The notes under the pieces: generated by a model | What the model saw: the letters and a program-made list of their open reading frames with translations, nothing else | Databases searched by the model: none | What the model was told of the DNA's origin: nothing | Translations under genes and position numbers: made by a program | Sequence record: ON528732 | Source of the DNA: Shigella phage ESh22 | Reading direction: 5' to 3' (one strand) | DNA: 64,000 nt | Shown here: one piece after another, positions 10,264-64,000 of the stretch | Numbering within the stretch: the stretch's first letter is position 1 | How the letters are laid out: the number at the start of each line of letters is the position of its first letter

Positions 10264-10756
10264 AAACAGTCTCGAACTTCAACAAGAGAGATATTGCCAG
10301 AACTGCATATTCCTTGTCAAGCATTGGTGGCATATTATTTTTAATATATTCTTTTTGTTCTGCATAGGTCATCTTAGGGGCTTCTAGAAGCTTCTCTCCT
10401 TGCTTCTGGTTATCAAGTTGAGTCTGGATAAACCAGTTAGAGCAATGGTGCTCCCCACCCTTTGTAACGGGCTTATGGTGGCCTAATGTGAAAGATTGCT
10501 TACCAGAGTAACGGCAAAGCTTGTTAAGAGTAGCTATAGTGTTCTTTACAACACAGTACTCATAGAGGTTGTCAATAGTGTAGTGAGGGTAATATGCAAA
10601 GAGGGAACTATCACGGTACTTCCCACGATTCCAAAGAACCATGTGATTAGAGTTTGAAGGGTCATATTGGTGAGACTCAATGAACTCTTGACGCTCATCA
10701 AAATCAAGACGTAAAACAGACATTGCAGCAGCACGTTTAAGGTTTGCGTAGTACAT
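10241..10756 (-). CDS. hypothetical protein (171 aa), His-rich patches (GHHKP, GEHHCS)
   Basis: ORF track; no confident motif. Confidence 0.5.
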   Translation of the reverse strand: MYYANLKRAAAMSVLRLDFDERQEFIESHQYDPSNSNHMVLWNRGKYRDSSLFAYYPHYTIDNLYEYCVVKNTIATLNKLCRYSGKQSFTLGHHKPVTKGGEHHCSNWFIQTQLDNQKQGEKLLEAPKMTYAEQKEYIKNNMPPMLDKEYAVLAISLLLKFETVYEATYNG

Positions 10757-61940: not shown

Positions 61941-61978
61941 TGTATTTCTCCAAAATTAAAGTTATAGTGATTCTCCTG

Positions 61979-62003
61979 AAAAAAGACGGTGCAGAGACCG
62001 TCA
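61979..62003 (-). terminator. intrinsic terminator (GACGGU-CUCUGC-ACCGUC + U6) between the tRNA cluster and the terminase operon
   Basis: Hairpin + UUUUUU on minus strand, downstream of tRNA-Cys. Confidence 0.55.
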
Positions 62004-62160: not shown

Positions 62161-62237
62161 TGGAGTATCGGAAGGGACTTGAACCCTTATATACCTGTTT
62201 TGCAGACAGGCGCATAATCCATTTCTGCCACCGACAC
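62161..62237 (-). tRNA. tRNA-Cys (anticodon GCA)
   Basis: Hand-folded cloverleaf: acceptor GUGUCGG/CCGAUAC, anticodon stem CCUGU/ACAGG with loop CUGCAAA, T-arm AAGGG-UUCAAGU-CCCUU, encoded CCA. Confidence 0.75.
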
Positions 62238-62244
62238 ATTAATT

Positions 62245-62337
62245 TGGAGGAAGATACCAGACTTGAACTGGTACGCCGATTTCTCGGTTACTGGCAGTTT
62301 AGCAAACTGCTCCCTTACCTTTTAGGGTTAATCTTCC
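62245..62337 (-). tRNA. tRNA-Ser (anticodon GCU), type II with long variable arm
   Basis: 93 nt; acceptor GGAAGAU/AUCUUCC perfect 7 bp, anticodon loop UUGCUAA, variable-arm hairpin CCGA-GAAA-UCGG, T-arm ACCAG-UUCAAGU-CUGGU, encoded CCA. Confidence 0.75.
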
Positions 62338-62340
62338 AAA

Positions 62341-63066
62341 TTATTTGTTTAGAGCATCTTTCATCTCTGGAGTTGCGATTGTATCAATCACACCAGTTTT
62401 ACAAGCATCATCAAACCAATCTGGTAAGACATTAGCAAGAAAACCGTTAATATTCGTTTTAAGGTAGTCAGCAATCAGGGCTGCTTCATCTGCAATCATC
62501 TGAGCCACTTCATTAGCGTAGGCAGTAATCTTTGCCATACCCTCATTAATCGCTGTAACAGCTTGTGTAGCGAGTTCAGAGATAGTGTCTAGTCCTTTAT
62601 CAATCGCATCTTGTAAATCGCTTAGAACGCCATTTACAGCGTCTATGGATGTATTAATCAAATCCATAGCTTTGTTACCGTACTCTGTAGCAACTCCCAT
62701 GATTCCACTAAACGGTGTACAACCGACTTGTTCACCTGCTGCTCCCATAACGTTAGAGTAACCTTTAGCTACTTGCATACGTTGTGAAAACTCATCTACA
62801 GACTTCTGTCCATAGTCAGTTAAAGTAGTTGTCGTTGAAGTGGTGCTACCAAGGCTTGTTGTAAAGCTGCTTAGTAAGGCAGTTGTCAAGCCAGCAGCAA
62901 TAAGAATTTGCTGGGTAGCTGGGTCTGATACAGAACCAATAGAAGTTACTAATGACTGAGAAGCAGCAACTGTACCACCAAGAACTGCTGCACCAGTAAT
63001 AAGAGGGTTAGAGAACCCGTTACCGGATTTAAGGAGACTGAAAATCTCTTTACCTTGTCCTGTCAT
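62341..63066 (-). CDS. hypothetical Ser/Thr/Ala-rich protein (242 aa) embedded in the tRNA cluster
   Basis: ORF 62341..63138 trimmed to the ATG at 63066 (MTGQGKEIF) because the upstream part overlaps a tRNA-like gene; stop lies 3 nt from tRNA-Ser. Confidence 0.5.
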   Translation of the reverse strand: MTGQGKEIFSLLKSGNGFSNPLITGAAVLGGTVAASQSLVTSIGSVSDPATQQILIAAGLTTALLSSFTTSLGSTTSTTTTLTDYGQKSVDEFSQRMQVAKGYSNVMGAAGEQVGCTPFSGIMGVATEYGNKAMDLINTSIDAVNGVLSDLQDAIDKGLDTISELATQAVTAINEGMAKITAYANEVAQMIADEAALIADYLKTNINGFLANVLPDWFDDACKTGVIDTIATPEMKDALNK

Positions 63067-63091
63067 CTCTTTCATTATGCACCTATAAAAT

Positions 63092-63167
63092 TGGTAGCCC
63101 ATCGGGATTTGAACCCTGTTCTCATGTTTTTCAGACACGCGCTTTAACCATATAAGCTAATTGAGCT
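63092..63167 (-). tRNA. aberrant tRNA-like gene (anticodon-loop candidate CUGAAAA, GAA/Phe-like); possible pseudo-tRNA
   Basis: Clear T-arm/3' end (GGG-UUCAAAU-CCC ... CCA) and anticodon hairpin CGUGU-CUGAAAA-ACAUG, but no hand-fold gives consistent acceptor and D-arm pairing (5' half and 3' half imply different acceptor stems); 5' boundary uncertain. Confidence 0.35.
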
Positions 63168-63174
63168 GTTGAAT

Positions 63175-63251
63175 TGGGGTGACCTACGGGAATCGAACCC
63201 GTATAGACCATGTTCACAGCATGGGTCATTATCCATTTATGATAAGGCCAC
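63175..63251 (-). tRNA. tRNA-His (anticodon GUG)
   Basis: Acceptor GUGGCCU/AGGUCAC, D-stem UCAU/AUGA, anticodon stem CCAUG/CAUGG with loop CUGUGAA, T-arm ACGGG-UUCGAUU-CCCGU, encoded CCA; no encoded G-1. Confidence 0.75.
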
Positions 63252-63282
63252 ATTTAAGGACTCTCGTAAGAACCCTTAGAAG

Positions 63283-63358
63283 TGGCAGCAGCGTAAGGAT
63301 TTGAACCTTAATCGTTCAGCTTCAGAGGCTGGAGCATTGCCAGTTATGCTACACTGCT
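63283..63358 (-). tRNA. tRNA-Gln (anticodon CUG), isotype by anticodon only
   Basis: 76 nt; acceptor AGCAGUG/CGCUGCU, D-stem GCAU/AUGC, anticodon loop CUCUGAA, T-arm UAAGG-UUCAAAU-CCUUA, discriminator G, CCA. Confidence 0.6.
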
Positions 63359-63364
63359 AATATT

Positions 63365-63443
63365 TGGTACTCCATATCGGATTCGAACCGATACATAACA
63401 CAGATTTTAAGTCTGGCCTCTCTGCCAATTGGAGTAATGGAGT
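63365..63443 (-). tRNA. tRNA with anticodon UAA (Leu-like) but short variable region; atypical, isotype uncertain
   Basis: 79 nt; acceptor ACUCCAU/AUGGAGU perfect 7 bp, T-arm AUCGG-UUCGAAU-CCGAU, anticodon loop CUUAAAA; 7-nt variable region instead of the long arm expected for Leu. Confidence 0.5.
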
Positions 63444-63445
63444 AT

Positions 63446-63521
63446 TGGCGGGGGATGTTGGAATTGAACCAACTTCTTCGATTTCAAAGACCGAGGTTTT
63501 AACCTTGTAAACTAATCCCCT
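63446..63521 (-). tRNA. tRNA-Gln (anticodon UUG)
   Basis: 76 nt; acceptor AGGGGAU/AUCCCCC with G73 discriminator (as recalled for E. coli tRNA-Gln), D-stem GUUU/AAAC, anticodon loop CUUUGAA, T-arm GUUGG-UUCAAUU-CCAAC, CCA. Confidence 0.7.
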
Positions 63522-63747
63522 AACGAACTCTTGTCAGGACATATGCGTTATTACACGTATCCTGATTTTCTGGTAATAGCGTTTCAAATATGATTTGATT
63601 AAATTCAATTCCTGCAAAACCATGAACAACCTTCATAGCTGCTATTGGGTCACATTTCCAACCTACAAGAATGAAGTCAGTGTCCCCAACTTGTGTTGTT
63701 TCAATCTTGTCAGCATCTTTATGCTTTTCAATAATGAGTTTACGCAT
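63520..63747 (-). CDS. hypothetical protein (75 aa) between tRNA genes
   Basis: ORF track; GAAGG RBS upstream of the ATG at 63747; stop abuts the 5' end of tRNA-Gln(UUG). Confidence 0.45.
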   Translation of the reverse strand: MRKLIIEKHKDADKIETTQVGDTDFILVGWKCDPIAAMKVVHGFAGIEFNQIIFETLLPENQDTCNNAYVLTRVR

Positions 63748-63766
63748 ATAATTACCTTCTAGTAAT

Positions 63767-63843
63767 TGGTGCAGAATAAGGGATTCGAACCCCTAACAAA
63801 CAACTTCGTAGGCTGCTGCTCTATCCGTTTGAACTAATTCTGC
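63767..63843 (-). tRNA. tRNA-Arg (anticodon ACG)
   Basis: Acceptor GCAGAAU/AUUCUGC perfect 7 bp, D-stem GUUC/GAGC, anticodon loop CUACGAA, T-arm AGGGG-UUCGAAU-CCCUU, CCA. Confidence 0.75.
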
Positions 63844-64000
63844 AATATTATTTCGAGATTCCTGTCTAGCTTTCTTCTTATCTCTTCTGAGAAAGCGTCT
63901 ACGATGGTCTGTACGCCACTTGTAGTAATCTTCTTCACCATCGTGAGAAGCACAGCAACCACAACTTGCAATTTCAACTTTACCATGTCTACCATAAGGC
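63834..64000 (-). CDS. partial ORF at window end (3' portion only; frame ambiguous)
   Basis: Two minus-strand frames are stop-free over 63844-64000; one encodes a Cys/His-containing segment (GRHGKVEIASCGCCASHDG...), both terminate only inside the tRNA-Arg gene; start lies beyond the window. Confidence 0.2.
   Translation of the reverse strand, partial: LMVDMVKLKLQVVVAVLLTMVKKITTSGVQTIVDAFSEEIRRKLDRNLEIILQN

Follow-up and report, generated by a model that had tools for sequence, protein, structure and literature searches.

Eight tRNA genes at the end of a phage tRNA array

The stretch of DNA analysed here (the window) comprises 64,000 nucleotides (nt) of Shigella phage ESh22 (record ON528732), and our subject is the tRNA cluster at positions 62,161 to 63,843. 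We find that all eight genes of this cluster are real tRNAs and that two of them, tRNA-Phe(GAA) and tRNA-Leu(UAA), are built unusually, both oddities being conserved across related phages. The structural quirks are genuine, are of known kinds, and lie within a real annotated cluster. We observe the structures of the genes, their conservation and their covariation directly; that the tRNAs are expressed, processed, aminoacylated and used in translation is what we infer. Judged from the genes themselves, it is likely that the segment belongs to a conserved, working tRNA array that includes a type I leucine tRNA, a phenylalanine tRNA with bulged bases and an ordinary second glutamine tRNA.

ARAGORN called eight tRNA genes in exact agreement with the coordinates of an earlier reading made from the DNA letters and predicted reading frames (the sequence-only reading), all on the minus strand, with the isotypes Cys-GCA, Ser-GCU, Phe-GAA, His-GUG, Gln-CUG, Leu-UAA, Gln-UUG and Arg-ACG. 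All eight scored above the 29-bit gathering score of Rfam model RF00005 (39.2-58.3 bits, E-values of 2e-11 to 4e-6), and each encodes its own CCA. The sequence-only reading had asked whether covariance models would turn all of them into standard tRNAs; detection is indeed complete, but conventional structure does not extend to Phe and Leu. The clean cloverleaves that it had folded by hand for Cys(GCA), Ser(GCU), His(GUG), Gln(UUG) and Arg(ACG) are returned by ARAGORN and Rfam, that of Gln(UUG) with an A1.C72 mismatch. A gathering run on the whole window reported only seven tRNAs: tRNA-His, which reaches 49.3 bits in a search confined to the 2.5-kb region, was absent because of the speed filters, a loss that matters for tRNA counts taken from default Rfam runs. 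The Y RNA-like model YrlA (RF02553), which matched parts of Phe and His at 21.6 bits (E=0.2, against a threshold of 69), was rejected; this match is a cross-hit of shared tRNA-like modules.

The segment is the promoter-distal end of a Mooglevirus tRNA array of about 5 kb in a Felix-O1-like myovirus (Ounavirinae). A 2.5-kb query around the locus was matched over its full length by Shigella phage ESh21 (Ounavirinae, Mooglevirus) at 99.9% identity, and by 290 more phage records at 80-94%, which belong in nearly every case to Felix-O1-like myoviruses (Ounavirinae, among them Mooglevirus, Felixounavirus and Suspvirus). Phages Sf13-Sf19 share 92-94% identity with the segment, and the same tRNAs were annotated there with tRNAscan-SE. 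In the ESh21 and Sf18 records, the stretch is annotated, by the same program, as the end of a one-strand array of about 25 tRNA genes, which adjoins terminase and head genes. The end of the window (base 64000) falls inside the array, and about 17 further tRNA genes lie beyond it. Throughout the array the tRNA genes occupy a single strand, each with its own CCA, and small conserved open reading frames (ORFs) stand between them. The arrays of Felix O1, wV8, Sf14 and ESh21 have the gene content, order and strand of the window's, with no material difference at the sequence level. The array was previously deposited and annotated, and the tRNAs of the close relative Sf14 were treated in a 2025 paper (PMC12482277), in which the word "variable" does not occur and neither the short variable loop of the Leu tRNAs nor the architecture of Phe is mentioned.

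We suggest a plausible working of the array. By what is generally known of phage tRNA arrays, its genes would be co-transcribed, and the tRNAs would be excised by host RNase P and 3' nucleases; because CCA is encoded, CCA addition would be unneeded. The tRNAs would then be charged by host synthetases and could supply the translation of AT-rich phage genes and codons. For Sf14, a fall in host tRNA supply late in infection was proposed (PMC12482277). If late phage translation does rely on the phage's own tRNAs in this way, the odd ones among them must be functional.

A bulged model for tRNA-Phe(GAA)

The gene at 63,092-63,167 had been described as D-arm-defective, with no consistent acceptor pairing and a perfect T arm. 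Our folds reverse this description. The D arm is a perfect 4-base-pair (bp) stem, GCUU/AAGC, with the loop AUAUGGUUA containing G18G19, and is invariant in six homologues; the acceptor has six clean pairs. It is the T arm that is imperfect, since only GGG/CCC is solid and its 3' side is short. The anticodon loop CUGAAAA was read correctly and gives the anticodon GAA (Phe). The hand-folding error that the sequence-only reading itself had considered therefore accounts for the claimed D-arm and acceptor defect, yet tRNA-Phe is still the most irregular of the eight genes. Eight nt precede U8-A9 and the continuous 3' strand has only 11 nt, so that the canonical 7/5 arrangement (a 7-bp acceptor, a connector of 2 nt and a 5-bp T stem, stacking to 12 bp) does not fit. 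To fold the gene, ARAGORN has to accept a mismatch, an irregular T arm and a spacer of 3 nt, and the Rfam alignment has two gaps on the 3' side, four non-standard pairs and the lowest score of the eight (39.2 bits).

Comparison with the Phe tRNA of contig L038, which has the canonical 7/5 arrangement and the same D arm, shows that the 5' acceptor strand of the window tRNA-Phe is longer by one base and its 3' T-stem strand shorter by one. These two changes give two single-A bulges and an 11-bp acceptor/T stack. Counting positions from the 5' end of the tRNA, the best model has acceptor pairs 1-6:67-72, a bulged A7, a pair 8:66, and a T stem of 4 bp from which A51 bulges; under this model the stack is 11 bp, against the canonical 12. 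Six distinct homologues, drawn from at least four genera, were aligned, and three models of the pairing were compared on them. The bulged model gives a standard pair in 95.8% of the cells, while an 8/3 pairing and a 6+5 pairing each give 90.8%; the latter two were rejected for their fewer paired cells. Ten pairs of the bulged model are altered on both sides among the six homologues, and the 8:66 pair is U-A in three and G-C in the other three. In the 8/3 pairing, 7:66 is unpaired in all six and 8:65 is paired in only three.

Homologues of the same architecture are found in Felixounavirus, Mooglevirus, Suspvirus, Kolesnikvirus and contig L044, and in Kolesnikvirus the gene stands elsewhere in the array. 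Their acceptor and anticodon stems have diverged by compensatory changes only, and there is hardly any variation in the D arm, the anticodon loop or the T loop; five of the six homologues have the anticodon loop CUGAAAA, and that of L044 has CUGAAGA. An odd architecture that is conserved together with compensatory changes indicates structural selection rather than a pseudogene. The gene, the sole Phe tRNA of the array, is consistently present across at least 27 loci, without the unpaired substitutions and patchy conservation that mark a pseudogene.

Several observations weigh against the bulged model, or against a working Phe tRNA. The covariation at 8:66 consists of two states only, which co-vary with positions 50 and 65, and in the Felixounavirus state 50:65 is G.A, so that G50 could pair with C66 instead. 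Nearest-neighbour energies give the bulged model no preference; the ViennaRNA ranking was set aside because it did not separate the models, favoured different ones for different variants, and is unreliable with non-standard pairs. The near-identical Phe gene of Sf14 has the lowest tRNAscan-SE isotype scores, the best being 34.1 and that for Phe 13.8 (PMC12482277, Table 2), and several GenBank annotations leave tRNA-Phe out. Moreover, U59, which is among the reported E. coli PheRS elements, is missing from the tRNA. The identity set of E. coli tRNAPhe comprises G34, A35, A36, A73, U20 and U59 (PMC9976931); the window tRNA-Phe has GAA, A73 and U20, with A at position 59, and the Suspvirus and Kolesnikvirus homologues have G73.

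One could take these scores, the skipped annotations, the alignment gaps with their non-standard pairs and the stack of 11 rather than 12 bp to mean that Phe(GAA) is a decaying pseudo-tRNA, unprocessed or uncharged, and that the phage depends on host tRNA-Phe. The sequence-only reading had listed a pseudo-tRNA among its options. We consider this unlikely: decay would bring unpaired changes, and the stems show compensatory ones only, with loops almost unchanged; the odd architecture is kept in all the groups named above, even at a different array position; and GAA and A73 are present. The Leu gene treated below is likewise conserved with compensatory changes. On these comparative grounds, the bulged tRNA-Phe appears to be a conserved variant of the tRNA fold. 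It recalls the 8/4 tRNAs (selC* tRNACys, minor tRNASec and allo-tRNAs; PMC7609411), which also have a 4-bp T stem with a single bulged A and an 8-nt 5' acceptor strand. It differs from them in having seven acceptor pairs and a bulge instead of eight pairs, a stack of 11 instead of 12 bp, no long variable arm, and an ordinary GAA anticodon. We found no description of such a bulged Phe tRNA in the literature, our coverage of which is incomplete. The gene offers a compact natural case for the tolerance of the 12-bp acceptor/T ruler by RNase P, PheRS and EF-Tu.

Leucine tRNAs without the long variable arm

The sequence-only reading had noted that Leu(UAA) has a 7-nt variable region in place of the long arm expected of a leucine tRNA, and the ARAGORN fold agrees. 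Its D stem is 3 bp long and its D loop 11 nt (CAAUUGGCAGA); the 7-nt variable region is unpaired, and U48, A73 and CCA are all present. It lacks the variable arm of at least 10 nt with a stem-loop that defines class II, and has the Leu anticodon together with a short variable loop that defines type I. The CAA and UAG Leu genes of the array are likewise of type I, so that the three Leu isoacceptors (UAA, CAA and UAG) are all short and there is no type II Leu. Across the Felixounavirus, Mooglevirus, Suspvirus and Kolesnikvirus loci examined, all Leu tRNAs (UAA, CAA, UAG or AAG) measure 77-79 nt including CCA; in the same loci long arms are kept in Ser (89-93 nt) and Tyr (83-88 nt). For 14 short Leu tRNAs, RNAalifold gave a plain cloverleaf with compensatory change in 17 of 20 pairs and no variable helix.

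Outside the variable region the gene resembles ordinary leucine tRNAs. Type II tRNALeu (E. coli leuZ, leuW and leuT, T5, Wc4-1) share with the phage Leu tRNAs the 3-bp D stem, the 11-nt D loop with its pattern NAAUUGGNAGA, A73 and the anticodons, and the D arms of E. coli leuW, leuZ and leuT (GAAUUGGUAGA or GAAUCGGUAGA) closely match that of the window Leu(UAA). The E. coli type II tRNALeu are 85-87 nt long with a long variable arm, where the window tRNA has its 7-nt region. Pectobacterium phage Wc4-1, a more distant relative, carries an 87-nt type II Leu(UAA) plus a short Leu(UAG). T5 was rejected as a precedent for short Leu tRNAs, because its tRNA-Leu(UAG) is 85 nt long and of type II.

The short class is widespread. 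We surveyed IMG/VR with a pattern that called for a Leu-type D loop and an NAR anticodon with the T loop close by, leaving the discriminator and the last variable base unconstrained. This returned at least 120 stretches from unrelated viral contigs, with at least 116 short Leu calls by ARAGORN. A73 is found in 89 of 90 short Leu tRNAs of Ounavirinae and in 151 of 160 among the survey matches listed; for U48, the last variable base, the figures are 89 of 90 and 158 of 160. Bacterial genomes have the class as a single-copy chromosomal gene in many Actinomycetota, and also in tRNA arrays of cyanobacteria and myxobacteria; Enterobacterales are absent among the bacterial-genome matches listed. Full-length short homologues annotated as tRNA-Leu occur in GenBank phages of Mycobacterium (98 records) and Streptomyces (56 records), as well as in phages of Klebsiella, Enterobacter, Enterococcus, Lactobacillus and others. 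A recent capture of Leu(UAA) from the host was rejected: blastn found no match in 5,426 E. coli genomes at E<=10, a result that is uninformative for distant similarity because the query is short. No paper naming a phage type I tRNALeu was found, which is weak evidence given our poor coverage of subscription journals. Since type I tRNALeu are published and are widespread in phages and Actinomycetota, the window Leu gene is one more such member; from its sequence features, we assign Leu(UAA) to the widespread class of leucine tRNAs with a short variable loop.

Two side observations concern the Leu genes of the array. In one contig (L019, IMGVR_UViG_2974574300_000001), Leu(taa) is a chimera whose 5' part is identical to Leu(CAA) and whose 3' part is identical to Leu(UAA); the array there lacks Leu(CAA), Arg(ACG) and Gln(UUG), and the acceptor stem of the chimera is mismatched. 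This looks like a deletion by recombination within identical D-loop sequence. Past the window end, the Leu(UAG) slot (L001:9098-9175, L002:9095-9171) is filled, depending on the phage, by one of two unrelated alleles. The first has a D arm of the standard Leu type and closely resembles type I Leu tRNAs of actinobacterial chromosomes; in the second the D arm is irregular, with a connector of 3-4 nt and a loop of 9 nt.

Leucine identity and charging

E. coli LeuRS is reported to require A73, A15-U48, G18G19 and A20a but neither the anticodon nor the long arm, with arm-less variants being active (PMC9976931). The window Leu(UAA) carries this set: A73, A15:U48, G18G19 within an 11-nt D loop of Leu type, and A20a, together with U8:A14. 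Among the survey matches listed, A14, A15, the G18G19 D loop, A73 and U48 are kept in about 95-99% of the short Leu members. In Sf14, Leu is the top tRNAscan-SE isotype for the three Leu genes (60.2, 49.1 and 67.4; PMC12482277, Table 2). One published result tells against charging in the host: a natural type I substrate, tRNALeu(CAA) from Streptomyces coelicolor, could not be charged by E. coli LeuRS, an enzyme said there to charge only type II (PMC6614811). In S. coelicolor, A73 is not an identity element, and this failure may therefore not transfer to the phage Leu tRNAs. With that failure on record, and by analogy with the E. coli identity set, charging of the phage Leu tRNAs by enterobacterial LeuRS is plausible rather than proven.

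The S. coelicolor type I tRNALeu(CAA), like that of human mitochondria (PMC6614811), has the Leu anticodon, short variable loop and U8:A14 of the phage Leu tRNAs. Like them, it shares the cell with Leu tRNAs of type II (PMC6614811). The phage Leu tRNAs differ from it in that they come from an enterobacterial phage, are short in all three isoacceptors, and have the E. coli-type set (A73, A15:U48 and the Leu-type D loop). Leucylation has been demonstrated for the S. coelicolor tRNA; the phage Leu tRNAs are known here as genes. In 46 long ORFs of the window, the Leu codons are TTA 23%, TTG 17%, CTA 9% and CTG 17%, and in Sf14 TTA and CTA are enriched relative to the host (PMC12482277). This codon use fits a decoding role for the phage Leu tRNAs.

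A different view would be that leucine is not what the short Leu tRNAs accept in enterobacteria and that, uncharged or mischarged, they act as decoys, regulators or recoding agents. The E. coli LeuRS assay on the S. coelicolor tRNA could be cited for it, as could the lack of a similar gene in the E. coli genomes, the latter with the short query in mind. We think it improbable. The leucine determinants are conserved in about 95-99% of the class, Leu is the top isotype model in Sf14, E. coli LeuRS is reported to be independent of the long arm, and no determinant of another synthetase was identified in these tRNAs. Furthermore, with three short isoacceptors and no type II Leu, these genes would be the only Leu decoders that the phage encodes.

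The textbook rule that bacterial-type Leu tRNAs are always long-armed is overstated, and the classical coliphages and Salmonella phages include an entire subfamily whose Leu tRNAs are exclusively arm-less. The phage Leu tRNAs are a natural test of E. coli LeuRS on type I, for which in vitro selection gives support and a 2019 cross-species assay contradicts it. For annotators, neither the Phe nor the Leu genes should be dropped as pseudo-tRNAs. A bolder proposal is that Felix-O1-like phages carry an "off-shape" but chargeable set, made up of the three arm-less Leu tRNAs, the Phe with its 11-bp stack and the His without G-1, and that this set is under selection because it evades host or competitor enzymes keyed to canonical tRNA shape, for instance nucleases or toxins directed at the type II arm or the acceptor geometry. 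We hold this proposal to be unlikely; if true, it would mean that enterobacterial LeuRS, PheRS and HisRS tolerate substrates considered poor. Finally, the suggestion that an irregular gene might be a suppressor or stop-codon-recoding tRNA, for which we found no evidence, can be dismissed, because all eight anticodons (GCA, GCU, GAA, GUG, CUG, UAA, UUG and ACG) stand in 7-nt loops and read sense codons, none is complementary to UAA, UAG or UGA, and anticodon UAA itself reads UUA and UUG.

Glutamine and histidine tRNAs

The sequence-only reading had singled out the second Gln gene for an acceptor stem unlike that of the first. The ARAGORN folds bear out the difference, and we regard it as unremarkable: Gln(CUG) is an ordinary second isoacceptor. 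It folds into a clean cloverleaf with the second-best Rfam score of the eight (58.1 bits), and has A1-U72, G2-C71, C3-G70, G73, G10 and the anticodon CUG. The E. coli tRNAGln set comprises a weak 1:72 pair, G2-C71, G3-C70, G73, G10 and YUG, from which Gln(CUG) departs at 3:70 (C-G). Gln(UUG) has the A1.C72 mismatch with G2-C71, G3-C70 and G73. Both Gln genes show compensatory changes in relatives, with acceptor-stem and anticodon-stem variants, and E. coli and T5 also possess both Gln isoacceptors. Each of the 27 copies seen keeps the A1.C72 mismatch of Gln(UUG).

E. coli HisRS is reported to need a G-1:C73 pair. tRNA-His(GUG) of the window has U at -1 and C73, and thus does not encode this pair. 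The same U-1 is found in 58 Felixounavirus and Mooglevirus loci and in T5, whose tRNA-His is clearly homologous to that of the window, and Kolesnikvirus encodes G-1. In some GenBank records this His gene appears as "tRNA-Pseudo-GTG" or "tRNA-OTHER".

Other features of the segment

Coordinates are collected in Table 1. The two ORFs that the sequence-only reading had placed among the tRNA genes are present and conserved, with Pfam or PHROGs matches; the 241-amino-acid (aa) DUF7217 product is encoded at a conserved position within the array. A promoter scan of the segment gave matches no commoner than in shuffled sequence.

Table 1. Features of the tRNA segment in the 64,000-nt window of phage ESh22
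Feature	Coordinates	Strand	Evidence
Terminator-like hairpin GACGGTCTCTGCACCGTC then TTTTTT, downstream of last tRNA	61975..62002	-	Consensus match only
tRNA-Cys(GCA), encoded CCA, last gene of array	62161..62237	-	ARAGORN; Rfam 56.7 bits
tRNA-Ser(GCU), 93 nt, normal long variable arm	62245..62337	-	ARAGORN; Rfam 46.0 bits
ORF, 241 aa, DUF7217/phrog_2114, function unknown	62341..63066	-	Pfam PF23854, E=2.8e-82; PHROGs; 27 related loci
tRNA-Phe(GAA), non-canonical	63092..63167	-	ARAGORN; Rfam 39.2 bits, two 3'-side gaps; covariation counts
tRNA-His(GUG), good cloverleaf, U at -1, discriminator C73	63175..63251	-	ARAGORN; Rfam 49.3 bits
tRNA-Gln(CUG), canonical	63283..63358	-	ARAGORN; Rfam 58.1 bits; compensatory variants in relatives
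tRNA-Leu(UAA), type-I-like	63365..63443	-	ARAGORN; Rfam 48.3 bits
tRNA-Gln(UUG), canonical save A1.C72 mismatch	63446..63521	-	ARAGORN; Rfam 56.6 bits
ORF, 75 aa, phrog_14202, function unknown	63520..63747	-	PHROGs; annotated in ESh21, Sf18
tRNA-Arg(ACG), canonical	63767..63843	-	ARAGORN; Rfam 58.3 bits

The 75-aa ORF ends in a stop codon that overlaps tRNA-Gln(UUG) by two bases, the first two at the 5' end of the tRNA. Outside the window, the upstream flank of the array encodes a conserved 471-aa protein with DUF2828 and DUF7788 domains (L001:11563-12978, minus strand), which matched no solved structure by sequence and is called an "RNA-binding protein" in the annotation of one relative. At the upstream end of the array in two Kolesnikvirus genomes (L030 and L033, about 10334-10410), ARAGORN reports a "tRNA-???" with an abnormal anticodon loop and the anticodon "tt"; the same gene is labelled "Undet" in the tRNAscan-SE annotation.

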